From: Bacilli bacterium
GTDB taxonomy: Bacteria; Bacillota_I; Bacilli_A; ML615J-28; CAG-313
Length of the DNA: 64,000 bases
Direction of reading: 5' to 3'
NCBI GenBank assembly: GCA_045589955.1
Contig: JAZNQD010000009.1
Coordinates: forward strand, 118,814-182,813
Every line of letters starts with the position of its first letter. The stretch's first letter is position 1. The notes beneath the pieces are model-generated. The model was not told the DNA's origin. It did no database searches and saw only the letters and a list, made by a program, of their open reading frames with translations. The translations under genes were made by a program, and so were the position numbers. Positions 3,157-30,976 of this stretch are shown one piece after another.

Positions 3157-4059
3157 TTATTTATATTGTGTAAGCAAATCCCTATAACCACTACAAGACG
3201 GACCATCATAATCCAAATTTAAAAAGTAATTTGCCATACACTTTAATTTAGAAGTGCAGTTTCTACAAATTTTATCTCGCTTTTTTTCCATTTCTATAAA
3301 ATAGTTATTAATTTCGTCCAAATTATCCATCTCACGCAAAGAAAAATTATTATTTTCAAAGGTTTGTACTGCGAATTTATCATTTGGAGTCATATACAAC
3401 GTTTTAACATTATAATTATCTATATTTAAAATACCTTCTAATTGTAATTTATTTTGAAAAGCAAACTTCATTTTATGAGATAATCTTAAAAACGTTCGTA
3501 CAACTTCTTCGTATTCATCATAGCCCTTAAATTTATACCTAGTATGAATTGTTTGATGAAAAGGTACAATTTCCCAAGATTTTATTTTTAGGATATTTAA
3601 TTGCTCAATAATAGCACTCTGGTCAGTTTTACAAGATATATCTAAAGATTTTACATTTATTATTTTACCCGTATCAACAGCAGCTTTAATATTTGAAAAA
3701 ACTTGTTGTTTAAATGGACTATAATCATTAAAGTTGTATTTAACATTAATAATATCACAGTTATTGATTATGCCCTTTTTAAAATTAATAAAATTAGTTT
3801 CAACAATAATTTTTTTGCAATGTATCTTTAAAATATTATAAAGCATCTCAAAATATAAATCTGAAAGTAAAGCTATTTCACCACCAGATACTTTAATTTG
3901 AGCAATATCATATTTTCGACTGATACTTGATAAACTTTCATCTAACCAAGATAAACTCATTGTATTTTGGTTTTGTTTTTCGTGACTATATAAACAAAAA
4001 CCGCAATTTTGATTACAACGATAAAGAGGAATAAGATTTACTCTAATTTGAGGTTTCAT
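3157..4059 (-). CDS. radical SAM protein with SPASM-like C-terminal Cys cluster; paralog of 23573..24481
   Basis: CNQNCGFC (CxxxCxxC) near the N-terminus, SGGEIALL glycine motif. C-terminus CRNCTSKLKC...CSGYRDLL aligns with ...CHACKYYNKC...CSGLYNLL of the 23573 ORF. Track start at 4065 is TTG; ATG at 4059 has SD GGAGA. Confidence 0.7.
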   Translation of the reverse strand: MKPQIRVNLIPLYRCNQNCGFCLYSHEKQNQNTMSLSWLDESLSSISRKYDIAQIKVSGGEIALLSDLYFEMLYNILKIHCKKIIVETNFINFKKGIINNCDIINVKYNFNDYSPFKQQVFSNIKAAVDTGKIINVKSLDISCKTDQSAIIEQLNILKIKSWEIVPFHQTIHTRYKFKGYDEYEEVVRTFLRLSHKMKFAFQNKLQLEGILNIDNYNVKTLYMTPNDKFAVQTFENNNFSLREMDNLDEINNYFIEMEKKRDKICRNCTSKLKCMANYFLNLDYDGPSCSGYRDLLTQYK

Positions 4060-4061
4060 AT

Positions 4062-4634
4062 TCAATCTCCAAAAATCATAGTTAATTTTTTAGCCAAGTT
4101 ATCTGCTGCTTTATACGCTTTTTCGCCGAACTCTTTAGTTTTTATAATAAACAATCTAGCTTGCGGATCAGACTTATCCAAATTGATTTCATACCATATA
4201 TTCTTATCTAAGAAACGACCTAATTTCTCTACATAAGATATATTTTCAACAATGAATGATACCCACAATTCTTCTTTGCCATGTCCGCAACAACTTCCTT
4301 TTGTTGTAATCCCTGGAATTAAATTTAAACTTTTTACCAAAGAGACTACTTCCGAATCTAATTCAGTAATAGGATAGTCTATATATACATCTATACCACT
4401 AAACAAATCTACATACATAGCGGTATTAAGCATATCTATACTAGTAAGCTCTTTAACGATATGTTCTGGATTAGCTTCAACGCTATACCGAGGATTACCA
4501 TCTTCTATGAAGAATAAAGTATTATCGAAACTAATCAAGCCTTGTTTTTTAGTAGATATTATTTGACCAGCCGCAAAAACTTCACCTGTTTCACGCCAAC
4601 TTAGCTTTATCCAATCACCTTCACTATAAATCAT
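4062..4634 (-). CDS. hypothetical protein
   Basis: ORF inside the radical-SAM operon. Track start at 4664 is TTG; the first ATG (MIYSEGDW) is at 4634. Confidence 0.4.
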   Translation of the reverse strand: MIYSEGDWIKLSWRETGEVFAAGQIISTKKQGLISFDNTLFFIEDGNPRYSVEANPEHIVKELTSIDMLNTAMYVDLFSGIDVYIDYPITELDSEVVSLVKSLNLIPGITTKGSCCGHGKEELWVSFIVENISYVEKLGRFLDKNIWYEINLDKSDPQARLFIIKTKEFGEKAYKAADNLAKKLTMIFGD

Positions 4635-6237: not shown

Positions 6238-6259
6238 AATACCCCCTTTAAACAATCTT

Positions 6260-16400: not shown

Positions 16401-16447
16401 AAAAGCTCCTTTTTATAAATATCTAATGCTTATGTATTTAGAACTAA

Positions 16448-16975
16448 TTAAGCCTTAGGAAAACCAGCCAAGTATTCATCATAAATTTCTGAAATATCAA
16501 ACTTATTATCAGATACCGTCAATCTAGTGTTTATAAAATCATAATGGTAAATATATACAGAATCACGATATTTTAAAGCAGATTTTGCATCGTCTTTCCA
16601 CTTTTTAACAGAAGAATTATACCAAGATATCATAGTATAAATATTATCATAACCATATTTATTACTAAATTTTAATAAAGCATCTTCAATATAATTTTCA
16701 GCTTGTATAATAAAGTTATGATATACGATTTCTTTATCTAGCTTATTTTGTTGAGCTTCTATTTCATTAATAACTGAGTTTTTTAATACAATTTTACCTT
16801 TAAATTCAACAAAATCTTCATTAGTAGCGTATATATCTTTACCGTACCATTCTAAATTATCTTTATCTGCAACGTATTTTTCTGCTAATTTTAAAGAAGG
16901 TACCCACTGAATATTTCCAGTCGAATCAATAATATAAAATTTGTCAGCGTTTTTATAATCCCCAAGAATAGACAT
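16448..16975 (-). CDS. hypothetical protein
   Basis: 175 aa. SD AAAGGAG. Confidence 0.5.
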   Translation of the reverse strand: MSILGDYKNADKFYIIDSTGNIQWVPSLKLAEKYVADKDNLEWYGKDIYATNEDFVEFKGKIVLKNSVINEIEAQQNKLDKEIVYHNFIIQAENYIEDALLKFSNKYGYDNIYTMISWYNSSVKKWKDDAKSALKYRDSVYIYHYDFINTRLTVSDNKFDISEIYDEYLAGFPKA

Positions 16976-16987
16976 ATTTTCTCCTTT

Positions 16988-17527
16988 TTATGCCAATGTT
17001 ACGCTATATGTACAAACATACGGTCTAATATTTTGTCTTACCACACTTGTTATAAAATTAATTAAAGTTGTAATATCTGCATCATCAATAAGTCGATAAG
17101 TGGTAGTCGTAGTAATATTCTTTAGTGATGAATAAGTAGTATTTCCTGTTAGATATACCATGTAATTTGTAGTTGAATATTGACTAGCTGCTACTCCAAT
17201 TTTAGTACTACAGAATGAAATGATATCCTCAACGAAATTTAAAAATTCGTTTGCTACAATATTAGTATTTAGTTTATCATTTACCTTTATTGTCGTTAAA
17301 AAATTCGTCATATCTGTAGCAACTGTTGTACTAGCTACTTGAGATACGCCTTTTGAAATTGTAACTGTAGACTTAGCGTTTGTAGTGATTGTTGTTACTA
17401 CACTATATCCTGTTTTAAAACAAGCCGGTAAGTTAGCAATGGTTGTATCAAAATTCATACAATTTGCCAAGATCCAACTTTTAACGTGCTCAACTACAGT
17501 ATTATAAGTTATTGCACTAAGAGCCAT
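16988..17527 (-). CDS. family-B paralog (untailed)
   Basis: Starts MALSAITYNTVVEHVKSWILANCMNFD...LPACFKTGYS; paralog of 14429..15001. Follows the 17529 ORF with a one-base gap. Confidence 0.6.
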   Translation of the reverse strand: MALSAITYNTVVEHVKSWILANCMNFDTTIANLPACFKTGYSVVTTITTNAKSTVTISKGVSQVASTTVATDMTNFLTTIKVNDKLNTNIVANEFLNFVEDIISFCSTKIGVAASQYSTTNYMVYLTGNTTYSSLKNITTTTTYRLIDDADITTLINFITSVVRQNIRPYVCTYSVTLA

Positions 17528-17528
17528 T

Positions 17529-18209
17529 TTAGATATCCATATAAGCTATAAACGTAGAAGAACTAGAAGAACAACTTGAACTACTCGAGCTTGATGAAGA
17601 CGAAGAGCTAGAAGAAGAGCAACTTGAACTATAAGATAGCATTACGTTTACTAAGCGATGTTGAATTGGTTTATTGATACAGTTTAACAAATCAGTAAAT
17701 GATACCTTTATTTGATCAGCCGTAAAGTTTGCATCTGCTGGAGTTAAATTACTTAAAGTTGGAAAATTAGTTGCTTCACTATTATAGAAAACGTATTTAT
17801 TATTTGAATAAGCACTTGTTAAAAAAACTACTTTGGTTGCAATAAATGCCGAAACAACATTACAAAAAATCATTAAATTTTTAAATGAAATCAATTCGCC
17901 AGTATTATCTGCAATTCCATTTGAAGTAAGAAAAGAATTAAATTGAGAATTAACTGTAGAAGATGGTACTGCTTTTAAAATTGTATCGTTTACCGTAGCA
18001 GTAGCTGTTAATGTAAATGTACCTGTTGTACTATTACCCGTTACATATGATACTTCCTTACTAGCCACTTGCCAAGAACTATTATTTACAAAAGCACTAG
18101 GTAAACCAGATGGAAGTGCATCAATATTTTGACAAACCTTTTTAATCTGAGTTAATACAGCATCAACAGCGTCTTTATATTTAATCGTTTGTCCTGTTGC
18201 GAGAGACAT
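17529..18209 (-). CDS. family-A protein with C-terminal poly-Ser/Cys tail (putative modification substrate)
   Basis: 226 aa ending ...[37 protein letters not shown]. The last 14 residues are identical to those of 15002..15691. First gene of the minus-strand operon. Confidence 0.7.
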   Translation of the reverse strand: [226 protein letters not shown]

Positions 18210-18245
18210 ATTTAAAACCCTTATAATGTTTATTATTTATAATTA

Positions 18246-18268
18246 TAGAACTAGAAAGTTAAGTTCTA
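18246..18268. promoter_or_regulatory. divergent pair of AGTTCTA motifs (tagaact ... agttcta) in the 65-nt region between the two radical-SAM operons
   Basis: Inverted copies of the recurrent 7-mer, one facing each operon. Confidence 0.35.
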
Positions 18269-18274
18269 AAAACC

Positions 18275-18691
18275 ATGAATGAAAATCTAAAAAATAGAAG
18301 AAAATTAGCATATTACATAAACAAATGGGACGACATAAATCTACCATATCATGAAGATTACAAAAATATACCCGAACAAGTGATTTCTTTTTTCAAAACT
18401 GAATCTAACTTGGTATATCCGGCAAAGACAATCTTCGTAGCTATAATTTATGCTAAATGCTTGGAACAATACTTTGATGTGCCTTTTTATGAAAGTTTAG
18501 ATGATATCGAATTGTTATTTGATGACAAATATTTTAACAAGTATACATATTCTCAATTCAAAAATGAATATGATTATATACTAAGTACTCTAACAGATAT
18601 TTTAAACTATCCGGCAGCACAAAAAACGATAGACTATTTTAAAAAAGAGTTTCTCTATGGAATTGATTATAAAACCAACCGGTCGTTGTAA
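18275..18691 (+). CDS. hypothetical protein
   Basis: 138 aa. First gene of the plus-strand operon. Overlaps the next gene by 35 nt. Confidence 0.45.
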   Translation: MNENLKNRRKLAYYINKWDDINLPYHEDYKNIPEQVISFFKTESNLVYPAKTIFVAIIYAKCLEQYFDVPFYESLDDIELLFDDKYFNKYTYSQFKNEYDYILSTLTDILNYPAAQKTIDYFKKEFLYGIDYKTNRSL

Positions 18692-19613
18692 TTTTAATTG
18701 TAAATTTTGCAGTGCGAATTTATTAGATATTAAACACAGTACAACAGTTTCTACTCAATTAAAAACTGTTTTAAATACAATAAAACCTGATAATATTATT
18801 TTTACCGGTGGAGATCCATTACTTGTAAGTCCTGACTATTATAATGAAATCTTATCGCTTGGAAACTGGAATATTGCTTTTACTACCAATTTAAAAGATT
18901 TTTATTTAAATCCCACAAAATGGATATCACTGTTTAAAAATCCGAGAGTTGGCATAGGAACCTCTTTTCAATATGGAAACAAAAGATTATGGGATAACAA
19001 CGCTCCTTATACCGAAAAACTATTTATTGATGTTATGCAAAAATTTTATAATGAAATTGGATATACTCCTCCTTTTATTTCATTAATAGATACAGATAAC
19101 GAAGATAAAGCTTTGGACCATGTATACTTAGCTAAAAAATTAAATACAAAATGTAAACTTAACGGTACATTGCCTCTTGGTAAGTCAAAATGTTTTTATC
19201 CAACTTATAAAATGATAAAAATATGGTTAGAAATCAAAGACTTAGGTTTAGAAGAATATTTAGATACACAAATACAGTTTTATGAAGGGGGTTGTAATTT
19301 CAACACAAGCCTTTATTGTGAATCTACTATTCGTACATTTTGGTTAAACGAACATGGTGAAGTACAATATGGAAATTGTGAAGATTGTTCAACACTAGGG
19401 CAACGTATTCCTTTAGATAAAATCAGACCAATACCGGTAAAAAAACAAATTGAAATAAATGATACTATAAACGATAAATGTTGTTATTGTGAATTATTTA
19501 AATTGTGTAACGCTTGTCGTTCCTTACAACGCATAAATAAACAAACCCCCGAGCACTGTGAAGAAATGCTAAAATTAAAACCAAGAATAATAGAGGCAAA
19601 ATGGAAGATATAA
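18657..19613 (+). CDS. radical SAM / SPASM-like protein, family 2
   Basis: GRCNFNCKFC, FTGGDPLL, C-terminal CCYCELFKLCNACR Cys cluster. Confidence 0.75.
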   Translation: MELIIKPTGRCNFNCKFCSANLLDIKHSTTVSTQLKTVLNTIKPDNIIFTGGDPLLVSPDYYNEILSLGNWNIAFTTNLKDFYLNPTKWISLFKNPRVGIGTSFQYGNKRLWDNNAPYTEKLFIDVMQKFYNEIGYTPPFISLIDTDNEDKALDHVYLAKKLNTKCKLNGTLPLGKSKCFYPTYKMIKIWLEIKDLGLEEYLDTQIQFYEGGCNFNTSLYCESTIRTFWLNEHGEVQYGNCEDCSTLGQRIPLDKIRPIPVKKQIEINDTINDKCCYCELFKLCNACRSLQRINKQTPEHCEEMLKLKPRIIEAKWKI

Positions 19614-20401
19614 AGACATTATATGCTATCCCACATTATAATTGTAACTTAGCATGTCCACATTGTGATTTATTTAAAAAACAAACAAATTATGATGAAG
19701 AGCATTTTATGTATTCATTAAATAATGTAAAAGCAGAAGAAATCGTTTTGTTTGGTGGTGAACCTCTTTTATATAAAGACAAATTACTAAAAATACTACA
19801 AACAAATAAAATATCATCTATTTCAACAAATCTATTAAACATTGATTTAGATATCTTAAATAATCTAAAAAAATATAATATACACATAGCTACATCATGG
19901 AATAATATACGATTAAATAAACAACAATATATAACATGGATAAATAATATACATAAAATAAATATATATAATATTGACTGTATTGTACTTATAACTCTGA
20001 CGGATGATCTGATACACAATACTGAGAAACTGACTGATACGCTGACTGATTTAGATAAAACAAGAATAAGAGGTGTATTATTTGAACAACTATTGGATTA
20101 TTCTAAAGACCAAAGTTTTTATGAAAAAGTAGACACGTTCCTATGTAAGATATCCGAAAATTGGCAATATTCGTTCAAAAACTTAATTATTGACAAATTA
20201 AATACTTGGAATTGTGATTGTAAAAAAACATATACTCTCGAACCAACCGGAATAATCCGTAAAGGTTGTCCACAATATATTCAACCACAAATAGTCAATG
20301 AATGCTTATCATGTTCTTTAGCAAATATATGTAAACCTTGTCCGTTACAAAAGCACTGTTCTTTTCCTAAAAAATTATACGTGATGTTTAAAAATGCTTA
20401 A
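19601..20401 (+). CDS. radical SAM / SPASM-like protein, family 2
   Basis: HYNCNLACPHC, FGGEPLL, C-terminal CLSCSLANICKPCPLQKHC. Confidence 0.7.
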   Translation: MEDIKTLYAIPHYNCNLACPHCDLFKKQTNYDEEHFMYSLNNVKAEEIVLFGGEPLLYKDKLLKILQTNKISSISTNLLNIDLDILNNLKKYNIHIATSWNNIRLNKQQYITWINNIHKINIYNIDCIVLITLTDDLIHNTEKLTDTLTDLDKTRIRGVLFEQLLDYSKDQSFYEKVDTFLCKISENWQYSFKNLIIDKLNTWNCDCKKTYTLEPTGIIRKGCPQYIQPQIVNECLSCSLANICKPCPLQKHCSFPKKLYVMFKNA

Positions 20402-21404
20402 TACTAAATATGCTTTAGATATTGTACTTTTTTCTGACTGTAACTTAAATTGTTTACATTGCTTTCAAACACACATAAAAAATGATATAGATAAACAATA
20501 CTTAAATGACTTGCCACAAATTATACATAAACATTTATTAGAAAAGCTTAAAGCAAATCCTAATATAAATGAAATAACTTTATCATTACGTGGCGGTGAA
20601 ATTTTTCAAGATAGATTTTCCGAAGACCAATTAGAACAATACCTTAATGTCTTTAAATTCGTCATACATAATTCACACGAATATTACCCTCATATAAAAT
20701 TTAATTTACATTGTATGTCAAATGGAATTTTTACAAAAACGAATCGTATCATAGATTTTTTAAAACATAACAATATTTCAATATCTTTATCTTATGACGG
20801 TTACGGTAGATTTAATACAAATACACTTTCTAAATTCAAAGAAAATTGTTTGGAACTAAAATCATTTATTAAAGACATTAGTATAACCTTAACCAAGCCT
20901 TCTGTTGAACAATACCTTTCCTCTGATGAATTACTTTTCTTCACTAATCATAATCTATTACTGGACTTTAACTATTACATTCCAACAAAAAATATCGATG
21001 ACTTAATAATATCAGATGAAGTATTATACGCCTTTTACAATTACTTATTAGAAAAGCATATATTTAATTGCAAATATTTAATCGATTTATTTGAAAGTCT
21101 TCTTACAAATAAAAAAATATATCCTTCTTGTAATTGTCAAAATACCGAAGTTTTAGTTAATGGAAAATATTATACAAACTGTACACTTAATAGTTCTTTA
21201 TCAAATATACAAATAAAAAACAAAGCTTTAAACAAAAGACAATGCTTATTTTGTGAAAATTATAATAATTGTTATGGTTATTGTTGGTTATCTATTCTTC
21301 ATGATAAATATATAATTTCAGAATGTCCACACAAAAAACTATTAATACAGATTAAAACGAACCCAATTTATATCAATAATTACTTAAAATGGAAAACACA
21401 ATGA
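20394..21404 (+). CDS. radical SAM / SPASM-like protein, family 2a
   Basis: SDCNLNCLHC, RGGEIFQD, C-terminal RQCLFCENYNNCYGYCWLSIL. Confidence 0.75.
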   Translation: MLNTKYALDIVLFSDCNLNCLHCFQTHIKNDIDKQYLNDLPQIIHKHLLEKLKANPNINEITLSLRGGEIFQDRFSEDQLEQYLNVFKFVIHNSHEYYPHIKFNLHCMSNGIFTKTNRIIDFLKHNNISISLSYDGYGRFNTNTLSKFKENCLELKSFIKDISITLTKPSVEQYLSSDELLFFTNHNLLLDFNYYIPTKNIDDLIISDEVLYAFYNYLLEKHIFNCKYLIDLFESLLTNKKIYPSCNCQNTEVLVNGKYYTNCTLNSSLSNIQIKNKALNKRQCLFCENYNNCYGYCWLSILHDKYIISECPHKKLLIQIKTNPIYINNYLKWKTQ

Positions 21405-22507
21405 CTTTCTCAATTATTCCATTCTATACTCAACCTAAATCATATGAAATAGCTTGTATGTTATTTGAAAGCTGTAATCTTCGTTGTAAATTTTGCTTTG
21501 AACCACATACCAATAATAAAATTGATACAGCATATATCGAAAGTATTCCAGATTTATTATTACCAGAATTCGAAAAGGTATATCAAAAAGATCCTACTAT
21601 TGAACAAATATATCTTATGTTATGGGGAGGAGAAGTTTTCTATGATAGTTTATCCGATGAAGTATTTCAAACATATTATCGGTTTGTAGATAAGTTAACT
21701 GCATTGTTTAATGAACATTTTCCTAAAGTCAAAATACTATTTTCTTGGTTATCAAATGGTGTATTTACAAAAAGAGAACGCGTTGAAAAGATAGTAAGAT
21801 ATTCAAAAGGTATAATAAATTTCAGTTATGATCCAGTAAATCGATTCTCATCACCAAAACAATTACAGATTATGTTAGAAACGGCTATTTATTTTAAAAA
21901 AATTGGATTAGGCGATAAAATTTCAATTACTTTAACAAAAGATTCTATACACGGTTTTATAACTAACAAATCACATTTAATATTCTTTAATAGTTTAGGA
22001 TATAACATAGATGTTAATTACTATATAGCCAATCCAAACTGGAAAGAATTATTACCAACAGATAATGAAATATTTACATTTATTAAATGGGCTTTAGATA
22101 ACCGTTTATTTAATATGAAAATCTTACAAAAACTCTTACTTCCATATCTAAATCAACCGGTCTCACATTATTGTGATTGTAAATATTGTTCACAGCTAAC
22201 CTATGGTGAATGGAGTGTAGATTGTGCAAAATGTAGCTCTGTATTACCAGCAAAAGATTTTTATGGTGAAGCAACTGAAATTATAAATGAAGAAAATACA
22301 AATGATATAAAAGCAACATTAGGTATACGAAAAAGAAAATGCTTATTGTGTAAATATTATAATTCTTGTCAAATGCCTTGTTGGATTTCAATTTTATTTA
22401 AAGGTTTTGAACCCACAGAGTGTTTTTATAAACAAGCTTTTGAATATATCGAACAGCATCCTACTTTTGTAAAAGAGTTTGAAAGGTGGTTGAAAAACAA
22501 TGATTAA
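21389..22507 (+). CDS. radical SAM / SPASM-like protein, family 2a
   Basis: ESCNLRCKFC, WGGEVFYD, RKCLLCKYYNSCQMPCWISIL. An alternative ATG at 21401 gives an ATGA overlap with the upstream stop. Confidence 0.75.
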   Translation: MENTMTFSIIPFYTQPKSYEIACMLFESCNLRCKFCFEPHTNNKIDTAYIESIPDLLLPEFEKVYQKDPTIEQIYLMLWGGEVFYDSLSDEVFQTYYRFVDKLTALFNEHFPKVKILFSWLSNGVFTKRERVEKIVRYSKGIINFSYDPVNRFSSPKQLQIMLETAIYFKKIGLGDKISITLTKDSIHGFITNKSHLIFFNSLGYNIDVNYYIANPNWKELLPTDNEIFTFIKWALDNRLFNMKILQKLLLPYLNQPVSHYCDCKYCSQLTYGEWSVDCAKCSSVLPAKDFYGEATEIINEENTNDIKATLGIRKRKCLLCKYYNSCQMPCWISILFKGFEPTECFYKQAFEYIEQHPTFVKEFERWLKNND

Positions 22508-23585
22508 TATTCCTTCAGAAAATAGATTTGGTTTTGATTGCTTACTTTTCGAGGCTTGTAATTTAAATTGTACGTTTTGTTTAGAAGCACATAATAATAC
22601 TAAAATTGATTATAATTGGATTCAGTCTATTCCTTTACGTCTAGTAGAAAGATTTAAAAAAGAATATGTAAAATTTCCAAATACTAAATTGATTACTATT
22701 AGATTATGGGGTGGAGAACTGTTTTATGATGCTTTACCAGATTCAATATTCCAAGTATATACAGATTTAGTACAATCTTTTATTACTGAATTTGGAATAG
22801 CCTTTCCTGATATTACACTTTCATTTGCTTGGGTATCAAACGGGGTATTCACAAAAACAGAGCGCTTAATTAAATTATTAAAAAACACAAATAGTCTGTT
22901 AAATATTAGTTACGACCCGGTTGGCAGATATAAGACTAAAAAACAAGAAGAATTAATGTTAGCTAATTGTAAATTATTTACGGACTTAAATCTCTTAGAT
23001 GAAATTTCAATAACTTTAACCAAACCTAATATTCAAGCTTATATTACTAATAAATCTAGATTATTTGATCTTAATTTTGTAAAAAAGATAGATATTAATT
23101 ACTATATACCAAATCCACTTTGGAAAGAATTATTACCAAATGATGAAGATTTGTTTATGTTTTTTAAATGGTGTGCCGATAATAGATTTTTTACAATTTT
23201 AGATTTTAAACGAGTTTTAGATACTTTAACTAAACCAAATGAAAAAGTAGAATTAGTATGTAATTGTCATAAACATCTATCTGCTTGTAAAGACTGTATT
23301 ACCTATAATTGTGTTACAAGCTCTTCTATTTTACCACAAAACCTATTTTATGATAAATATACAAATGAAATAAACGAAGATAATGTTAGTGATATAAAAC
23401 GTAAATTAAGTTTGCATAAAAGAGGTTGTTTATTCTGTGAATATGCTAACATTTGTCCTAAAATCTGTTGGACTTCAATTTTATTTAAAGAATATATAGC
23501 AACAGAATGCCCAATGCAACGTTTATATAAATATCTACAAGACAATAAACAAATATTAGAGGATTATAAAAAATGGAGTTATTAA
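22500..23585 (+). CDS. radical SAM / SPASM-like protein, family 2a
   Basis: EACNLNCTFC, WGGELFYD, RGCLFCEYANICPKICWTSIL. SD AAGGTGG. Confidence 0.75.
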   Translation: MINIPSENRFGFDCLLFEACNLNCTFCLEAHNNTKIDYNWIQSIPLRLVERFKKEYVKFPNTKLITIRLWGGELFYDALPDSIFQVYTDLVQSFITEFGIAFPDITLSFAWVSNGVFTKTERLIKLLKNTNSLLNISYDPVGRYKTKKQEELMLANCKLFTDLNLLDEISITLTKPNIQAYITNKSRLFDLNFVKKIDINYYIPNPLWKELLPNDEDLFMFFKWCADNRFFTILDFKRVLDTLTKPNEKVELVCNCHKHLSACKDCITYNCVTSSSILPQNLFYDKYTNEINEDNVSDIKRKLSLHKRGCLFCEYANICPKICWTSILFKEYIATECPMQRLYKYLQDNKQILEDYKKWSY

Positions 23586-24481
23586 ACGGTTTATCTATAA
23601 TGCCCTCTTTATATTGTAACTATAACTGTGAGTATTGCTATTTAGGGGATTTAAGAAAAAACAAAACTCTTTTAGATTTAGATATACTCGCTAATCGTTT
23701 AAATGAAATAACACAAAACTATACAATTCAACATACAACTTTATATGGTGGTGAAATATCTCTATTACCACAAACATACTTAAATGATTTATTGCAACTT
23801 GTAAAAGATTATAATCCAGCGTTTGTAACAAATTTATCCCAAGAATGGTTTTTAAATTACTGCTTAATAAACAATGTTAAACTTAGTATATCGTTAAATG
23901 AAGAAAGAACCAATTACAATAAAACGTTGCAGATTCTTAAGACGTTAAAAGGTATTAAATCAATTTGTTTATCTGTTGTTGTTTTACCTAGTTTACTAAA
24001 GAAAGATTCTTTTGAAATTCTAGATTTTTTTGAAGATTTAGGGTTTGATGTTATTTTTATTCAATATCACCCTTCTATTCATTCTAAAGTCGTTTATAAT
24101 ATCACAACAAAAGATTACAGTGATTTTTTATTACGTATCCTAAAAGCTAAATACGAACGCGACTACAAATTCAAAATACAAAATGAGATTGTGCTTAGAG
24201 ATACAACATACCGAGCAACGGCTGACAGTTTTATGTTTATTAATCAAAATGGTAATTTCAGTTCAATTAAATATAACGAGAAAGAAGAAGAATATTTCGT
24301 AGAATTTAATACTTTACAAGAATGGAAAGACTTTTGTAAGCAAGAACAAAAACTATATTATACAAAGTGTCATGCTTGTAAATATTATAATAAATGTAAA
24401 GCTGAACATTTAGTCAATCTAGAAAAAGATAATTGTTCAGGTCTATATAATTTATTAGAAGAATATTCACAAATTGGATAA
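23573..24481 (+). CDS. radical SAM / SPASM-like protein (paralog of 3157..4059)
   Basis: LYCNYNCEYC, YGGEISLL, C-terminal CHACKYYNKC...CSGLYNLL. SD AGAGGA. Confidence 0.75.
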   Translation: MELLNGLSIMPSLYCNYNCEYCYLGDLRKNKTLLDLDILANRLNEITQNYTIQHTTLYGGEISLLPQTYLNDLLQLVKDYNPAFVTNLSQEWFLNYCLINNVKLSISLNEERTNYNKTLQILKTLKGIKSICLSVVVLPSLLKKDSFEILDFFEDLGFDVIFIQYHPSIHSKVVYNITTKDYSDFLLRILKAKYERDYKFKIQNEIVLRDTTYRATADSFMFINQNGNFSSIKYNEKEEEYFVEFNTLQEWKDFCKQEQKLYYTKCHACKYYNKCKAEHLVNLEKDNCSGLYNLLEEYSQIG

Positions 24482-24487
24482 CAAGAG

Positions 24488-25168
24488 ATGACTGTAACAA
24501 CTGGACAACTTATCGTAAAAACTAGTCGTGATTCATTAGTCGGTGCAATAAATGACTTTAACGATAGAGTGACAAATGCAATTTATAATCAAGTTGCATA
24601 CAATTCTTCAACGTATCCTTATTTTTCTGGATCGGTGACTTATGGTACAACAGGTGCATCATCAGTAGAAGCATTTGTAAATCCTATTGCTATTCCATCT
24701 GGTCAACTCGCTGCTGTTGATACACGTCCTACATGGTCAATCGGTGATACTATAATTACTGCCTCTACACTTTGGAATAATATGTTATCTATTACTAAAA
24801 CTCTCATAAAAATAAGAGGTTTTACTGCAAATTGGTATCATAGAACAGATAGTACAGATAATTTAAAGCAAACAATAAATAGTGTTGGATTTTTTAATTT
24901 AAGTTGGCCAGCAGTGCCCACAGGTACATTAACTGCAGCTACAGCAACATCAAATTGGACCAGAACAGGAACCTTAAATCCTACACTTTCTCCTGCAACA
25001 CAAATTACATCGGGTGCAACAGCTACAGCCGCTACAATGAATAATACTATTCAAAATTGTTATAATGCTTGGAAAACAAATTGCCTTGACAGTAGAGTAG
25101 TATATAATTTTTATACTTGTCATCAAAATTGTCATAGTAGTTGTCATAGTAGTAGAGGACGTAGATAA
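24488..25168 (+). CDS. family-A-like protein with Cys/His/Ser-rich C-terminal tail (putative substrate)
   Basis: Starts MTVTTGQLIVKT...; family A of 17529 starts MSLATGQTIKYK... The body is T/S/A/N-rich. It ends ...NCYNAWKTNCLDSRVVYNFYTCHQNCHSSCHSSRGRR. Confidence 0.55.
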   Translation: MTVTTGQLIVKTSRDSLVGAINDFNDRVTNAIYNQVAYNSSTYPYFSGSVTYGTTGASSVEAFVNPIAIPSGQLAAVDTRPTWSIGDTIITASTLWNNMLSITKTLIKIRGFTANWYHRTDSTDNLKQTINSVGFFNLSWPAVPTGTLTAATATSNWTRTGTLNPTLSPATQITSGATATAATMNNTIQNCYNAWKTNCLDSRVVYNFYTCHQNCHSSCHSSRGRR

Positions 25169-25882
25169 ATGATATATACTGGTCTACCTTATGATATGGA
25201 TATACTTGGTAATATTGACAATGAAGGTGCGGTTGTTGATATGTCAAACTTAAATTACCCTGGTATACAAAAAGAAGATAATGTTAGAGTAAGTTATATT
25301 TATTTAAGAAATACTGCTTTTAATAATGTTACTTTGGATTTTAATCAAACCTCTTATGAATTTAAACGAGATTTCCTTTTATTTTATATAAATGGTGATA
25401 TATTTTATGAAATCGAATCCTGTACAAACACTTGGATTAAGATACTCGGTTTATATAATCAACAAGATTTTCCAATTGATACGATTTTTACACAAGATGA
25501 ATTATGTCAATTTATAAAAGAGAATTTAACTGAGATCATAAAATTAAATAACATCATAGCATCTTTACCTGTATATTTATTTTTACGTTTAAATATTGAA
25601 GATCCTGAAAATTTTAATTTTAATGATATAGAAACAGATGATACTACAACCTGTAACGATAATATCATTTTTATCATTAAAAACCAATTTTTTAATTTTT
25701 TATATGAAGCTTTAAATGCAGATACACCAAGGATATATTCAAAATTATTCACTGAAACGAATAATCTTTTATTTGAAACAATAATGCAATATACACCTTT
25801 CGGTATTTTATTATATGGAATGAATCAACCAGATTGGTCTAAGTTTGTAGATGGATTAGAAACTATTTGTAAGGATATCTAA
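25169..25882 (+). CDS. hypothetical protein
   Basis: 237 aa. ATG immediately follows the upstream stop. Confidence 0.45.
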   Translation: MIYTGLPYDMDILGNIDNEGAVVDMSNLNYPGIQKEDNVRVSYIYLRNTAFNNVTLDFNQTSYEFKRDFLLFYINGDIFYEIESCTNTWIKILGLYNQQDFPIDTIFTQDELCQFIKENLTEIIKLNNIIASLPVYLFLRLNIEDPENFNFNDIETDDTTTCNDNIIFIIKNQFFNFLYEALNADTPRIYSKLFTETNNLLFETIMQYTPFGILLYGMNQPDWSKFVDGLETICKDI

Positions 25883-25884
25883 AT

Positions 25885-26889
25885 ATGCTTAAACAAATAA
25901 AACCTTTATCAATAGAAACAGTATTACAAGATCCATTATATAAATTTGATTATAGTGCAGATTACACAGAAGAAATTTCTATAGATATACCTAATGTTGA
26001 AACATATACAACACCAAATCAATATTTGCGTTATTTAGTAAATAAATTAAGTACTAATATTTCAGAGTATAAATTAAAATACAATAAAATTAATATCGCT
26101 CATAACAATTTAGATGCTTTTTGTACAAAGTCTAAATATATAACCGTAACATTATTAAAGAGTGATTTAACTACCTTTTCAAACCTTATTCTTACAGATT
26201 CAGAGGATTTGGAATACTTATTACAGCATCAATTACAAGAAATATATTATTTTGGAAATACTGATACTTTAGTTTTACCAACTTGTATCCATGAATATCT
26301 ACAAAACAATTCTTATTTAAAATGTAGTATTTTGGCTTATGATTTACACTTAAGTACAAATAAACTACTCAAAACATATAGTGTTCCTTTTGATATTCCA
26401 ACTTTAAAATTTTCCTGTTTATCAAATACTGCATATTATCCTACATTTAAAGAAAAACATTATTTAGAAATACCTACTCCTAAAGAAATTGATTATATAG
26501 ATTGTTATGCATTATATACCAATTTACCAAAAGAATTATATACTAATATAATCTTTGAAAATAAAACTTTACATTACAATATCACTAATAAACAATTTTA
26601 TGGTGCAGAAGGAATAAATGAAACTAATTTAGCTTTATGCTGTAAACATTTATCTGAAAATCCATTAGATAGAGTTATTGTATTACGTTTAACAAAAGAT
26701 GGTCATTTTATACCTCTTTGGAGTACTAAACAATTATTAGCTTCTTTATATATTGGATATCCTGAAATACCTGTATGTATATTAAGTGAACAATATCATT
26801 TACCTACTTCTTTTATTTCTAAGAAAAATGATATTGACATAGAAAAAACAAAAGATTTCTTAAAACCTTACTTTATGTTACATGACTAA
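25885..26889 (+). CDS. hypothetical protein
   Basis: 334 aa. SD AAGGATA. Confidence 0.45.
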   Translation: MLKQIKPLSIETVLQDPLYKFDYSADYTEEISIDIPNVETYTTPNQYLRYLVNKLSTNISEYKLKYNKINIAHNNLDAFCTKSKYITVTLLKSDLTTFSNLILTDSEDLEYLLQHQLQEIYYFGNTDTLVLPTCIHEYLQNNSYLKCSILAYDLHLSTNKLLKTYSVPFDIPTLKFSCLSNTAYYPTFKEKHYLEIPTPKEIDYIDCYALYTNLPKELYTNIIFENKTLHYNITNKQFYGAEGINETNLALCCKHLSENPLDRVIVLRLTKDGHFIPLWSTKQLLASLYIGYPEIPVCILSEQYHLPTSFISKKNDIDIEKTKDFLKPYFMLHD

Positions 26890-27862
26890 AAAAGTAATTT
26901 ATATAAAACTGACAAATGCTTGTAATTTAAAATGTAAACATTGCTATAATGAGATTATGCAAAATCATAATTTTATGTCAGATAATGTTTTAAATCAAAC
27001 AATACAATATATAAAGACTTTTAAAAACACTGAAATAGATTTACATATACATGGTGGAGAACCTCTTTTATTTGATCTTGATAAAATTGAATATCTTATT
27101 TCTGAATTAAAAGATTATACCTTTAAATGGACAGTTACTACTAATCTAATATATGAAATAACAGATAAGCATTTAAATATTTTTAAGAAGATGCTTCCTT
27201 ATGATAATAATCCTTTAATATTAACTTCTTGGGATTATAAAATTCGTTTTAAAGATAATCAACAATCTTTATGGGAAAATAATGTAAGATATCTAATTGA
27301 AAAAGGTATACAAGTACAACCAATTGTATGTTTAACAAATCTTCTTATAGAAAATTTAAAACCAGAAGATATATTTTTGTATTTTAAAAGATTTAATATT
27401 AAACGTTTTAATTTTGAAAGAATAACTAATACTGGAAATGCTTTAGTAAATAATCTTAGACCTACAAATGAAAATTTACAGAATTGGTTATTAGATGCTT
27501 ATAAAATATATGAAAAACGAAAAGATATTGAAATTCCTTTATTTACAGGTTTAGAGTATTCTTTAAAAGGTATTTTTTTAGGTTGTAGAAATAGACAATG
27601 TACTAATAATGTTATAACGATAAATCCAAATGGTACTATAGCTAGTTGTCCTAATACTGCTGATTATACTTTTAATGATATTTTTACTAATAATCTTCAA
27701 ATATCAAAAAAGGACTATATTACAAATAAAGAAAATTCAAAAGATTTAAGATGTTTAATTTGTGAATTTTATAAATATTGTAATGGAGATTGTTTTCAAT
27801 TAGAATTTGATGATACTAATTGTCCTGGATTAAAAAAACTTTATAAGTACCTTTTAAAATAA
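26882..27862 (+). CDS. radical SAM / SPASM-like protein, family 2
   Basis: NACNLKCKHC, HGGEPLLFD, C-terminal LRCLICEFYKYCNGDCFQLEF. Confidence 0.75.
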   Translation: MTKKVIYIKLTNACNLKCKHCYNEIMQNHNFMSDNVLNQTIQYIKTFKNTEIDLHIHGGEPLLFDLDKIEYLISELKDYTFKWTVTTNLIYEITDKHLNIFKKMLPYDNNPLILTSWDYKIRFKDNQQSLWENNVRYLIEKGIQVQPIVCLTNLLIENLKPEDIFLYFKRFNIKRFNFERITNTGNALVNNLRPTNENLQNWLLDAYKIYEKRKDIEIPLFTGLEYSLKGIFLGCRNRQCTNNVITINPNGTIASCPNTADYTFNDIFTNNLQISKKDYITNKENSKDLRCLICEFYKYCNGDCFQLEFDDTNCPGLKKLYKYLLK

Positions 27863-28135
27863 ATTTTTTTCTTTCTAAATCAATACTTTAATATAACAAT
27901 TGGAAATTTAATTTTTTATTTTTCATTTGTAATTCATTTCTATTATATATATTATATAAACAAATTAGGTTTTAGTAGGGTTTTATTAGGATCTCGTTTA
28001 TTTTTTATTGTCTAAATGACATATCGTCCAAATGACGTCTTAGATTCAGATAAATAATTGTTTACTTTATATCCATATTGATTGTTCCATAATTTTTAGT
28101 TTTACGTTTTAATAAAATATATATATTATTCATAT

Positions 28136-28465
28136 ATGCACACACGTACACATGACGCGAGGAACCAGGAAATGTTGTTAAAAGTAGAAAAAGCTAAAAG
28201 TAAATATAGTTTAGGTGAAGTTTATCGTCTCATTGCTGGTAACTATTATTTGGAAATAGGTGGTAAAAGTAACTTAGTTGGATTATATACTGTTTTTACA
28301 AATTTTATGAATGGTAATTTAAAAAACACAAATCCTTTATTTAAGTTAAGTTTTAATGATAATTTCTTTTATATAAAATATACACCATCTAATAAGTTTT
28401 TAGGTATTAAGCGCGAAGAAGTCGAAAATTTATATAAACTCATTCAAGCTGAAATTTGTAAGTAA
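28136..28465 (+). CDS. hypothetical protein
   Basis: 109 aa. An alternative ATG at about 28173 (MLLKVEK) has AGGAACCAGGA upstream. Confidence 0.4.
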   Translation: MHTRTHDARNQEMLLKVEKAKSKYSLGEVYRLIAGNYYLEIGGKSNLVGLYTVFTNFMNGNLKNTNPLFKLSFNDNFFYIKYTPSNKFLGIKREEVENLYKLIQAEICK

Positions 28466-28470
28466 AAAGA

Positions 28471-28500
28471 AAGGGCTAACAAAAATTAGCCCTTTTTATA
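28471..28500. terminator. bidirectional rho-independent terminator
   Basis: Stem AAGGGCTAA / TTAGCCCTT with a 6-nt loop, followed by TTTTATA. Lies between convergent genes. Confidence 0.6.
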
Positions 28501-28516
28501 ATATTTATCTTTTTGT

Positions 28517-30976
28517 TTAGATATCAATTTCATCTAAAGTTTTAGTTTCAATTTCACCAGTTTCTATATTTTGTACTTTTATTTTAATATCACTGTCATC
28601 TTGTTCATTAACTAAGATATCAACAATTTTATAATCAGGTAAATCTACAGCCGGCATTTCGACGTTATCTTCCTCTGGACTATAATCTCCACCCATATCA
28701 CCTATGTTAATATCTCCAAAAGAAGCCGCTGGACTATCGATATTAGGTTCAGCAGCTAAATCTATATCAGGTCCATCATTCGTTGTTTCTGGAGCTTCTG
28801 GTGAGGCATCTGGAGTAGTTTCTGGTTGTGCTGATGCTTGATTATTTAAATTTGTTGCAAAATCTTCTGGTTTATCATCTTCTGTTAAAGTGATATCCTT
28901 TGAATCATTATCTAATATTTTAGAAAATTCATCTTTGAAGCAAGCTTCTGTCTTTACTTTTAATACCGGAAGAACAGCACCTACACCATCACTTAAATTT
29001 AATTCAGCATTTTTAATTGCTTCCATTGTTTTATCGATTAAAGCATTAAATTCTTTTGGACTAAGTGTGTTTTTATATCCCATTAATTCTTCAACAACTT
29101 GTGTATCTGTTGCAAAGTCATTTTCTAGCATATCATCAAAGTGTTTGATAATAGCATCTAAATCTGTTAAATTTTTATTAGTTTCTATTTCAGATTTAGC
29201 AGCATTTAAAGGCTCTAACCACGATGGATTTTTAATAGTAGAATATTTATTATTTCTAAACCATTGGTCATAAGCTTTATATTGTGCTTCATTATGATCT
29301 GAGCGTTTAGCGTAGTCAGCAGCAGTACGTTCAGGAAAATTTGGGTCCTGTTTAAATTTTTTACTTAAAACATCTTCATCTGGATTAATATCTAACCCGT
29401 GTGTAGGATTGACTACTTTTGTAACGTAATCGTGGAATTCTTTTTTATTTAAAGCTTTACCTGTTTTAGGGTCAAGATATTTTTTAAATAATTTCATCCA
29501 ACTATCATGTACAGCATTAATCATCATTTCTCTGTTAAATGCTGCTTTAGCTAATTCTTCATGTTCAGCTGCTTTTGGATCTAATTGTAATCCATATTTA
29601 CCGTTTTTATCTTTAGTGCTTAACCATTTTAAATATTCTTTAGCCATATCTAAAGGTTTTGCATACGAAACATTTTCAAAGGGTGTACCAGGATAACCGC
29701 GAACTTCTTTTATGTCTTGTTCTTCGGTTAAACTTTCTTCTTTTTTATCGCCTGTATATTGAACAGCTGCTCCTAAACCAGCAGTAGTTACTCCACCAAA
29801 ACATTCATTCATATTATCTAATTGAATAGGTTTTAATGGAGCTTCTGTATCGTGAATAGCATAAATAGCATCTAATATATTCATTGCTTCATCACGAGAC
29901 ATAAATGTTGCAGCTTGAGAAATATTATTAGTTAAAAGATTACCTTCTTCCCATTCTGAATTTAGATATAGGTTTTCATCTTTATTGGCATCTTCATAGC
30001 TCAAATACCAATTTACGCTATCAGCAAACGGAAAGTCTCTAATTATTTCTTCATCTGGATCTTTTTTGTTTGGATTCATAAATTGTGTAGCGTATTTATA
30101 AGCATCTCTACCCATTTTACCAGGTTTTTTAGTATTTTGCATTTTAGCGTTATACAAATCTTCTTGAGTAAATGGTCTAGTGTCTCCGATTTTATCTCCA
30201 GCAGAAGTAGTTTTTGTATTTAAAATTTTATACCAAGGACTAGAAGGTTTGATGTTTAATCCTAAATTACGACGATTTGTAGGTATTTCTTCATCATCTT
30301 CTTCTGTTAAGTCAGCACTTTCAGCTTTACCCCACATTACTTCTTGTAATTGAGATACTAAATTACCTAAAAGTTCTTTAGCTTTTAACTCATCTATTTC
30401 TTCGTGTTCAAATGAGTTATATATTTCGTGAGCTTTTTTAAATAACCAACTACCAGAACCAACGTTTGAAATAATGAATTGAAATTGTTGCCATGGATGT
30501 ACATCAGATGTATATTCGGTACCTTCATGTAATTTAATGTTTTTTGGTAAAGGTAGATTATTTGATTTTAACCAGGCGTGTAATTCAGCAACAGAATCGA
30601 ATATTTTAACCTTACCATCCATAGATAAACATAATTTTGCATTTTGTTTAAATATTCTGGCGTTTTTATTTTTTAAGATTGCTGTGTTACCTTCTTCGTT
30701 GATTTTCCAATTACCAGCATCTTCGTCAGTATTTAATTTTTTAATTTGATTTAAAATAGATTGTAATTCATCAGATACTTCTAAAGACTGTGTAATTTTA
30801 TCTATTGCTTGTTTAGTTAAAGCATCTTTATCTACGTTTTGAGGATTTGTATCTTCATCATCAAACATATTAAGATCTGGTTTATTTGGATTAAAAGCAT
30901 CTTGTTTTTTAGCAATAGATAAGTATTTTTCTTCTGCTTCTAACAAGGCTTTAGCAAGTCTAGATTTGTTTGTCAT
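28517..30976 (-). CDS. large hypothetical protein (819 aa), acidic C-terminus
   Basis: Long uninterrupted ORF, translationally coupled (TAATG) to the 30976 gene. No motif recognised. Confidence 0.55.
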   Translation of the reverse strand: MTNKSRLAKALLEAEEKYLSIAKKQDAFNPNKPDLNMFDDEDTNPQNVDKDALTKQAIDKITQSLEVSDELQSILNQIKKLNTDEDAGNWKINEEGNTAILKNKNARIFKQNAKLCLSMDGKVKIFDSVAELHAWLKSNNLPLPKNIKLHEGTEYTSDVHPWQQFQFIISNVGSGSWLFKKAHEIYNSFEHEEIDELKAKELLGNLVSQLQEVMWGKAESADLTEEDDEEIPTNRRNLGLNIKPSSPWYKILNTKTTSAGDKIGDTRPFTQEDLYNAKMQNTKKPGKMGRDAYKYATQFMNPNKKDPDEEIIRDFPFADSVNWYLSYEDANKDENLYLNSEWEEGNLLTNNISQAATFMSRDEAMNILDAIYAIHDTEAPLKPIQLDNMNECFGGVTTAGLGAAVQYTGDKKEESLTEEQDIKEVRGYPGTPFENVSYAKPLDMAKEYLKWLSTKDKNGKYGLQLDPKAAEHEELAKAAFNREMMINAVHDSWMKLFKKYLDPKTGKALNKKEFHDYVTKVVNPTHGLDINPDEDVLSKKFKQDPNFPERTAADYAKRSDHNEAQYKAYDQWFRNNKYSTIKNPSWLEPLNAAKSEIETNKNLTDLDAIIKHFDDMLENDFATDTQVVEELMGYKNTLSPKEFNALIDKTMEAIKNAELNLSDGVGAVLPVLKVKTEACFKDEFSKILDNDSKDITLTEDDKPEDFATNLNNQASAQPETTPDASPEAPETTNDGPDIDLAAEPNIDSPAASFGDINIGDMGGDYSPEEDNVEMPAVDLPDYKIVDILVNEQDDSDIKIKVQNIETGEIETKTLDEIDI

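Follow-up and report, generated by a model that had tools for sequence, protein, structure and literature searches.

Radical S-adenosylmethionine (SAM) enzymes with a SPASM domain are, to our knowledge, known as maturases almost wholly from bacterial pathways, either for cofactors or for peptides made on the ribosome and then modified post-translationally (RiPPs). The present analysis concerns a set of such genes in a 64,000-nucleotide stretch of contig JAZNQD010000009.1 (positions 118,814 to 182,813), referred to as the window. The GC content of the window is 22–35%, and its phage genes include those for a portal, a prohead protease and a GroEL-like chaperonin; relatives of its genes are carried by metagenomic contigs of 160–480 kb. 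Given this gene content and these relatives, it is a piece of an uncultured jumbo phage. Its plus-strand operon encodes seven radical-SAM enzymes, which together with an eighth gene on the minus strand, 3157 (gene Z), are called family 2 here. Genes are named after their first nucleotide or by type, the D type being the trio 20394, 21389 and 22500 (genes C, D and E). Encoded in the same operon is p24488, a folded protein whose tail consists of (C-H-x-S/N)x3 followed by R-G-R-R. That these enzymes are paired with a CHxS-repeat tail protein, in cultured jumbo phages as in uncultured ones, is a more interesting result than the assignment of the SPASM domain itself; the conserved pairing suggests that the phage encodes a RiPP-like maturation acting on a protein of full size.

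An earlier note on this DNA proposed a comparison with sactisynthases and ranthipeptide synthases, which turned out to be reasonable, with three-residue cyclophane synthases at least as close. The substrate motif of three-residue cyclophane-forming enzymes is aromatic-X-X, with Trp, Phe, Tyr or His at position 1; on Hxx motifs, HaaB, YhhB and HtkB link C2 of the His to C-beta of residue 3, and their precursors frequently have two or three of these motifs (PMC11499958). The candidate tail likewise contains two to four tandem H-x-x triplets (HQN/HSS/HSS in the window, HSS/HTS/HGS in phage RSL2). On the enzyme side, Foldseek ranks ChlB first among the structural neighbours of the modelled 21389 protein, and the cyclophane-forming radical-SAM/SPASM enzyme YhhB is the best NCBIfam match of 20394 (E 1.6e-8), with 16 of 70 D-type members matching YhhB and 12 matching FxsB. 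The scores nevertheless fall well short of the triceptide cutoffs (YhhB 33.9 against 445, FxsB 18 against 370, AmcB 29.2 against 425 and GrrM 26.6 against 310). Unlike in triceptide systems, the substrate would be the tail of a folded protein of 180–370 residues, a conserved Cys precedes each triplet, and the system is phage-encoded, with four to eight different radical-SAM genes.

The thioether-forming enzymes (CteB/SkfB, PapB, SCIFF and CXXX-repeat maturases) possess a full SPASM domain, as found in the module. Half of the D-type members (35 of 70) match PapB, as does the 26882 protein (E 1e-14); the J-type profile matches CteB in the Protein Data Bank (PDB) over the full length, and the CXXX-repeat maturase model TIGR04115 is the best match of 21389. 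The spacing of the tail Cys, at every fourth residue, fits such enzymes, and a Cys-rich protein is encoded beside the enzymes in all ten lineages examined, albeit as a full-size protein rather than a short peptide. Here too the cutoffs lie far above the scores (PapB 54.6 against 340, StsB 12–19 against 625, SkfB 9.4 against 300), and the SCIFF maturase model matches only four of the 70 D-type members, weakly. The locus further differs from thioether systems in that neither a RiPP recognition element (RRE) nor a leader was detected and the tail His is as strongly conserved as the Cys, and from PapA, with its CX3D motif, in that the tail has no acceptor Asp/Glu pattern.

The third point of comparison is anSME, whose substrate is a full-size protein and not a peptide, as is proposed here. 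The 26882 protein has full-length NCBIfam matches to DynA, PapB and anSME, and anSME (4k36/4k37) is the best PDB sequence match of the J-type profile, built from seven orthologues, over its full length and with all SPASM Cys aligned (E 8e-10 for 4k37, residues 11–312). Combined with a last repeat that often reads C-H-x-S-R, placing Arg at +4 as in the sulfatase motif C-x-P-x-R, this likeness might indicate that a tail Cys or Ser is oxidised to formylglycine, with no cross-linking. Of the explanations considered, we give this one the least credence: TIGR03942 gives 51 bits where the cutoff is 349, the tail lacks Pro or Ala at +2, many homologues have Trp in place of the last Cys, neither a sulfatase nor a C/S-x-P-x-R motif accompanies the enzymes, and no sulfatase fold was found for p24488, its model being without a fold match in the PDB. 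The epimerase YydG/EpeE (8ai1) is the closest PDB sequence to 23573 (E 2e-5), over the N-terminal half only, and TIGR04078 (YydG) gives 27.6 bits for 23573 and 23.4 for 3157, the cutoff being 300. As all scores lie far below the equivalog cutoffs, none of the genes is filed in a characterised family; judged by sequence, they are new subfamilies of radical-SAM/SPASM enzymes.

Linkage of the enzymes to a Cys/His-tailed protein

Ten lineages were compared: the window, L001, L002/L003, L004/L010, L009, L011, and the phages Atu_ph07, RSL2, DT01 and Phosso. In every one, a protein with a (C-H-x-x)n-R-x-R-R tail is encoded directly adjacent to a D-type or J-type gene (Table 1). The body of this protein has often diverged past BLAST detection, and the linkage to the enzymes holds regardless. 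Within the window the tail of p24488 is the only one of its kind, and 21 homologues of p24488 keep T-C-H-x-N-C-H...R-G-R-R, with two to four CHxx repeats. The enzymes are strictly linked to a tail-bearing protein. In an AlphaFold2 (AF2) model of p24488, with a predicted local distance difference test (pLDDT) score of 82.5, the body is confident and residues 214–226 fall below 50, predicting disorder. Foldseek found no match to this model in the PDB; its matches in BFVD include a 296-residue protein of Atu_ph07 (gp170, E 3.8e-4). A tblastn search with p24488 gave no match in 50,697 phage records, and neither did a megablast search of the same records with window positions 15000–28000. The p24488 tail is the most likely substrate of the module enzymes, at even odds or marginally better.

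A giant gene of tail-fibre-like or virion structural type (Big_2, Phage_fiber_rpt) is, in some lineages, directly followed by the genes for the tail protein and the D-type enzymes, as at positions 1–6009 of L004, 1–3814 of L010 and 1–2808 of L015. These structural neighbours are a hint that the tail protein may be virion-associated.

Several observations weigh against enzymatic modification of this tail. At 180–370 residues the tail protein is unlike a leader–core peptide, no RRE domain was identified, and D-type copy number (1, 1, 1, 2, 3, 5) varies across lineages without regard to how many CHxx repeats there are. The NCBIfam equivalog scores, including those for YhhB and PapB given above, are all far under their cutoffs, and most NCBIfam matches span the N-terminal radical-SAM core only; the generic viperin model matches 58 of the 70 D-type members, more than YhhB, FxsB or PapB. 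Four to eight enzymes also seem excessive for a 16-residue tail, so some may act elsewhere, and the Cys/His tail could be a metal-binding site instead of a substrate. A one-to-one mapping of the three D-type paralogs onto the three CHxx repeats was rejected, copy numbers being uncorrelated across lineages.

The metal-binding alternative can be extended to the whole protein, with the tail binding metal or an Fe-S cluster and p24488 acting as a scaffold, chaperone or electron-transfer partner. The sequence C-H-x-x-C-H-x-x-C-H is rich in metal ligands, C191 and C199 are also invariant in the p24488 subfamily of the window, and many radical-SAM systems need dedicated partners. The RSL2 and Atu_ph07 homologues, however, lack the upstream Cys, which leaves no conserved fixed site of four ligands; disorder is predicted for the tail, and terminal repeats of three- or four-residue motifs are typical of radical-SAM RiPP cores (PMC11499958). 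Such a role is unlikely, although of the rivals to a modified tail it ranks first. Two narrower ideas were also dropped: a fixed four-Cys zinc site in p24488, given the lack of upstream Cys conservation in those two phages, and a CX3CH heme-attachment reading of the tail, which would require a periplasmic maturation system.

The radical-SAM enzymes and their C-terminal domains

All of the open reading frames (ORFs) named in the earlier note are present where it had placed them (ORF map). The eight family-2 genes each encode a CX3CX2C motif near the N-terminus, invariant in the alignments of each type, and an aligned GGE/GGD motif. Relative to the Pfam gathering threshold of 29.5 bits for PF04055, 18657 (37.2 bits), 19601 (33.1), 23573 (30.5) and 26882 (39.2) score above and 20394 (17.7), 21389 (26.3), 22500 (18.6) and 3157 (23.6) below; the sub-threshold genes are tied in by profile–profile alignment (hhalign, 98%) and by fold match.

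The resemblances that the earlier note had drawn between genes were largely borne out. The ending R.CL[FL]C.[NY][YA]N.C...CW[LIT]SIL occurs in 20394 (RQCLFCENYNNCYGYCWLSIL), 21389 (RKCLLCKYYNSCQMPCWISIL) and 22500 (RGCLFCEYANICPKICWTSIL), and the WGGE[VL]FYD motif ascribed to all three is found in 21389 and 22500, with 20394 reading RGGEIFQD in its place. BLAST similarity between them is well beyond chance, identifying them, at the level of sequence, as true paralogs: 21389 and 22500 are 43% identical (E 1e-96), and 20394 is about 30% identical to either (E 5e-53 to 22500, E 4e-51 to 21389). The 20394 protein also aligns with that of 26882 over 341 residues (E 4e-5). Similarly, 23573 and 3157 have the common endings that had been described, KCHACKYYNKC...NCSGLYNLL and ICRNCTSKLKC...SCSGYRDLL respectively; their proteins are 23% identical over 301 residues (E 5e-12), with four auxiliary Cys in common, and the F-type genes of cultured phages (E 1e-16 to 1e-20) resemble the 3157 protein more closely than 23573 does.

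Direct searches with SPASM profiles, which the earlier note had put forward as a check on its SPASM-like interpretation, were largely negative. No gene of the eight scored above threshold for PF13186, isolated C-termini (last 130 residues) included: 26882 reached 12.6 bits against a cutoff of 21.5 and the other seven gave no match. The TIGR04085 cutoff of 27 bits was passed solely by 26882 (30.1 bits). That most genes fail these profiles reflects the limited sensitivity of the profiles and not absence of the domain, a reading that was rejected after profile–profile, conservation and fold tests.

Genes 20394, 21389, 22500 and 26882 contain CX2CX5CX3C exactly, flanked by an upstream C...G...C and a downstream Cys, which together form the seven-Cys signature C-x9-15-G-x4-C, gap, CX2CX5CX3C, gap, C. 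The signature is lacking in 23573 and 3157, and 18657 and 19601 have the CX2CX5CX2C variant with the upstream Cys kept. An exhaustive hidden Markov model (HMM) search for the D-type family returned 138 clusters at 50% identity (E<1e-30). In an alignment of 70 diverse members, which are those counted throughout, the three radical-SAM Cys, the GG and C279, C318, C321, C327, C331 and C345 are invariant and C264 is near-invariant; 11 of the 70 match TIGR04085 at E<=0.01. The invariant Cys of the J type are 240, 256, 291, 294, 300, 304 and 314. Those of the A type (seven orthologues) are 11/15/18, 166, 213, 221, 275, 278, 284, 287 and 301, and those of the B type (orthologue alignment) 15/19/22, 182, 207, 223, 235, 238, 244, 247 and 253, leaving eight conserved non-core Cys in each. 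Across nine F-type orthologues only 15/19/22 and 266/269/275/288 are invariant.

Profile–profile comparison connects the types to 26882, which passes the direct test. For the C/D/E family the alignment with it has a probability of 98% (E 2e-13), spans 299 columns and matches up all seven Cys, and alignments to the J type run full length for types A, B, D and F, at 98–99.8% (A 98.2%, E 3e-14; B 99.8%, E 8e-28; F 98.6%, E 1e-15). Besides anSME, CteB, TigE and SuiB are matched by the J-type profile over the full length. The AF2 model of 21389 (pLDDT 92.1, predicted template modelling score 0.89) consists of alternating beta and alpha elements, and its best Foldseek matches in the PDB are ChlB (9gmc), TigE (8vpo) and SuiB (5v1q), over 370–420 aligned columns; all three are radical-SAM/SPASM RiPP maturases. 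Matches to the core alone, such as viperin and LipA, rank below them. When the tests go beyond a single HMM, SPASM-like C-terminal domains are supported by Cys conservation, profile–profile comparison, the anSME alignment and the modelled fold, and the genes very probably encode radical-SAM/SPASM-derived enzymes.

The same matches bear on whether the enzymes instead act on a small molecule, cofactor or nucleotide, making or modifying it in the manner of viperin, MoaA, BtrN or AhbD, or hypermodify DNA, with p24488 unrelated. SPASM and twitch enzymes do act on small molecules too, the many viperin matches of the D-type members lie at the N-terminus, MoaA models match 3157 and others, and cupin and 2-oxoglutarate (2OG)-Fe(II) oxygenase genes occur in the cultured-phage modules. 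The viperin and MoaA matches are nevertheless confined to the generic radical-SAM core, whereas the full-length neighbours in sequence and fold (anSME, CteB, TigE, SuiB and ChlB) are peptide or protein maturases. There are no nucleotide- or sugar-handling genes in the plus-strand operon (Pfam, PHROG), and strict linkage to a protein that is universally conserved in its tail only would stay unexplained. This too is improbable, close behind the metal-binding alternative.

The Cys patterns allow the auxiliary clusters to be predicted. Two should be present in 20394, 21389, 22500 and 26882, and two probably in 18657 and 19601. One should be present in 23573 and in 3157, from which the upstream auxiliary cluster I (Aux-I) Cys are absent; the four Cys that they keep align with CX2CX5C and the distal Cys of the J type, which we take to be the auxiliary cluster II (Aux-II) ligands of anSME. 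Classical twitch domains (BtrN, MoaA, SkfB) keep the Aux-I half of SPASM. As 23573 and 3157 keep the opposite, Aux-II-type half, they are not classical twitch enzymes.

The operon, its relatives in cultured phages and a proposed pathway

The region is best explained as a conserved jumbo-phage operon extending from about 18275 to about 28465, whose seven radical-SAM enzymes fall into four related types and all derive from the radical-SAM/SPASM maturase lineage. This account of the locus, taken together with the p24488 tail as the most likely substrate, is given about even odds. Four non-enzyme genes accompany them (p18275, p24488, p25169 and p25885). Homologues of p18275 occur in seven to eight of eight module-bearing loci, RSL2, DT01 and Phosso among them. 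Those of p25169 are found in L001, L002, L004, L009 and L011 (E 1e-25 to 1e-75), each time within the module, and p25885 has homologues in L001 (E 5e-89), with weak ones in L009 and L011. The genes are tightly packed, as the earlier note had described, with overlaps of 35, 13, 8, 16, 8, 13 and 8 nucleotides, one junction where TAA directly abuts ATG, and two gaps, of 6 and 2 nucleotides; the 4-nucleotide ATGA overlaps that it had also reported occur at no junction of the plus-strand operon. A terminator-like hairpin at 28468–28497 likely ends the transcription unit. It is bidirectional and the sole such site in 17800–28600, with none between 17800 and 28467, the interior of the operon included. 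A sigma-70 promoter scan, which found 98 sites against 87 expected, was uninformative in this 27% GC DNA.

The A, D, F and J types co-occur in eight loci (L001, L002, L009, L011, Atu_ph07, RSL2, DT01 and Phosso; BLAST presence/absence). The modules of the cultured jumbo phages (RSL2 gp066–081, Atu_ph07 gp164–172, pPa_SNUABM_DT01 PA10_00053–67 and Phosso 282–291) have these four types in common with the window, as well as a p18275-like protein and a CHxS-repeat/RxRR tail protein. They differ in having a single D-type gene together with cupin and 2OG-Fe(II) oxygenase genes; in the window there are three D-type paralogs and a B-type gene, and oxygenases are lacking. Besides these cultured phages, at least six metagenomic lineages of jumbo phages have the module. 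The cupin/oxygenase genes are gp172 in Atu_ph07 (L012), gp066, gp076 and gp078–080 in RSL2 (L013), and PA10_00054, 56 and 67 in DT01 (L014). This content recalls the fused radical-SAM/alpha-ketoglutarate hydroxylase architecture that has reportedly been described for ChlB-type enzymes.

In the cultured phages the module genes are annotated just "radical SAM" or "hypothetical". Papers on FLC6, RP12/RP31 and S13 list radical-SAM, Fe-S oxidoreductase, cupin and 2OG-oxygenase genes as accessory genes of unknown function (PMC8066314, PMC5468394, PMC11898562). A search of the literature library used, on phage radical-SAM/SPASM systems and poly-serine substrates, found no functional study, and radical SAM goes unmentioned in a 2026 review of jumbo-phage biology and in a large genomic survey.

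A pathway can be proposed in which each enzyme would bind a SAM-cleaving [4Fe-4S] cluster through CX3CX2C, with the SPASM-derived domain at its C-terminus. The enzymes would bind the p24488 tail, and a 5'-deoxyadenosyl radical would take hydrogen from a tail residue, the resulting substrate radical going on to form intramolecular cross-links within the tail. These could be His-to-C-beta cyclophanes on the H-x-S/N triplets, as in triceptides, or Cys thioethers, as in sacti- and ranthipeptides; the choice of cross-linking chemistry, of either kind, is tentative. The remaining enzyme types might add further steps, for example epimerisation or oxidation, and the phage protein, although of full size, would in this way undergo a RiPP-like maturation. 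That at least ten jumbo-phage lineages have a dedicated four-to-eight-enzyme pathway cross-linking the (C-H-x-S)n-RGRR tail of a folded phage protein is a real possibility, if somewhat short of an even chance. It would possibly amount to a protein-scale RiPP system for the virus itself, in which a His-cyclophane or thioether cap has a metal-binding or structural role in infection.

Elsewhere in the window, the phage-encoded GroEL-like chaperonin lies at 34656–36302 on the plus strand (phrog_5725, E 2e-127). Near it are a portal-like gene (39251–41047) and the gene for a 929-residue protein with an N-terminal prohead-protease domain (47730–50519).

The minus-strand operon and the meaning of the pairing

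The minus-strand operon holds six radical-SAM genes of a separate family 1, a carbamoyltransferase gene and two pairs of paralogous proteins. The family-1 genes encode W..C...C.FC at the N-terminus, and 6260, 7760, 10759 and 13542 end in CGH...C..CD, which 11709 and 12619 are without. They are distant from the C/D/E trio (E 1e-3 to 1e-6, N-terminal). Two other paralogous proteins, of 343 and 349 residues, are encoded among them and have homologues in L001 and L005. In each of the two pairs, one protein carries a poly-Ser/Cys tail and the other is tail-less, and all 62 metagenomic homologues of the tailed proteins keep the Ser/Cys tail, with Cys roughly every 7–9 residues and the ending [MTVFWY]-[FY]-I-[AGV]-Y-M-x-x. 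The tailed proteins have no PDB, Pfam or PHROG relatives, and no literature on them was found; PDB sequence searches with their family, and with the p24488 family, returned low-complexity noise only. These tails may be more unusual than the family-2 finding itself, and the carbamoyltransferase might carbamoylate hydroxyls such as the poly-Ser side chains.

The proximity of the two operons invites the suggestion that family-2 enzymes act on the poly-Ser/Cys-tailed proteins and not on p24488. The 65-bp intergenic region is common to both operons, family-2 member 3157 sits in the minus-strand one, the Ser/Cys tails resemble classic radical-SAM substrates, and both modules are adjacent in L001. 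Yet RSL2, Atu_ph07, DT01, Phosso, L002, L009 and L011 have the family-2 module with no poly-Ser protein nearby, tblastn found no poly-Ser-family homologue in the 50,697 phage records, and L005 and L007 pair poly-Ser proteins with family-1 genes, with no family-2 genes within 10 kb. Since the poly-Ser proteins co-occur with family 1 and go undetected in the cultured family-2 phages, they are unlikely substrates of family 2, and we rate this suggestion below the small-molecule one and above formylglycine formation. A relationship between the poly-Ser and p24488 families was also rejected (hhalign probability 2%).

Table 1. Features of the two operons, with the tails of proteins corresponding to p24488 in other lineages (window coordinates; a dot marks features given without a strand).
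Feature	Position	Strand	Basis or remark
Divergent intergenic region, 65 bp	18210..18274	.	splits plus-strand family-2 operon from minus-strand poly-Ser/family-1 operon; presumed promoter region (ORF map)
p18275, accessory protein, 138 aa, first gene of operon	18275..18691	+	phrog_20737, E 3e-15
A-type radical-SAM enzyme (gene A), 318 aa, SPASM-variant C-terminus CX2CX5CX2C	18657..19613	+	PF04055
B-type radical-SAM enzyme (gene B), 266 aa, SPASM-variant C-terminus CX2CX5CX2C	19601..20401	+	PF04055
D-type paralog 1 (gene C), 336 aa, radical-SAM/SPASM	20394..21404	+	CX2CX5CX3C at residue 284
D-type paralog 2 (gene D), 372 aa, radical-SAM/SPASM, the modelled one	21389..22507	+	AF2, Foldseek, Cys conservation
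D-type paralog 3 (gene E), 361 aa, radical-SAM/SPASM	22500..23585	+	CX2CX5CX3C at residue 310
F-type radical-SAM enzyme (gene F), 302 aa, degenerate SPASM	23573..24481	+	CX2CX5C and one distal Cys only
p24488, folded protein, 226 aa, with disordered C-terminal tail TCHQNCHSSCHSSRGRR	24488..25168 (tail nt 25115-25165)	+	candidate substrate
p25169, conserved accessory protein, 237 aa	25169..25882	+	no Pfam or PHROG match
p25885, accessory protein, 334 aa	25885..26889	+	no significant Pfam match
J-type radical-SAM enzyme (gene J), 326 aa, canonical seven-Cys SPASM	26882..27862	+	TIGR04085; anchor of the SPASM assignment
Bidirectional intrinsic-terminator-like hairpin	28468..28497	.	12-bp stem then T-run, both strands
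F-type paralog (gene Z), 302 aa from TTG start (ATG at 4059)	3157..4065	-	embedded in opposite family-1 operon
NodU/CmcH-type carbamoyltransferase	4624-6255	-	PF16861 E 1e-56, PF02543 E 2e-31; inside radical-SAM operon
Family-1 radical-SAM paralogs, six	6260-7219, 7760-8686, 10759-11706, 11709-12626, 12619-13542, 13542-14408	-	PHROG 1802
Paralogous proteins, 343 and 349 aa	8689-9720, 9713-10762	-	35% identity, E 2e-70; no Pfam match; among family-1 genes
Poly-Ser proteins	15002-15691, 17529-18209	-	end in 15-19 Ser punctuated by Cys, closed by TFIAYMDI
Tail-less paralog partners of poly-Ser proteins	14429-15001, 16988-17527	-	
Tail, L001			...TCHNNCHGSCYSNRGRR
Tail, L002/L003			...SCHLSCHSSCYCHGSRHRR
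Tail, L004/L010			...YCHDSCHGSGRSRR
Tail, L009			...TCHRNCHGNCHGSRGRR
Tail, L011			...SCHNNCHCHSNCDSRHRR
Tail, Atu_ph07 gp170			...FCHSSCHASCHNSRSRR
Tail, RSL2 gp068			...VCHSSCHTSCHGSRGRR
Tail, DT01			...ICHTSCHTSCHSARGRR
Tail, Phosso			...YCHTSCHASCHSSRSRR

The module is conserved and exclusive to phages, with several diverged SPASM enzymes locked to one folded protein, whose sole universally conserved feature is a short Cys/His repeat tail. RSL2, Atu_ph07, DT01 and Phosso are in culture, which opens the hypothesis of a modified tail to direct test. If the tail is indeed the substrate, the "radical SAM / hypothetical" block that has been noted yet left unexplained in several cultured jumbo phages would gain a function, new enzymes for installing cyclophanes or thioethers would become available, and RiPP-type radical chemistry would be seen to reach full-size viral proteins.

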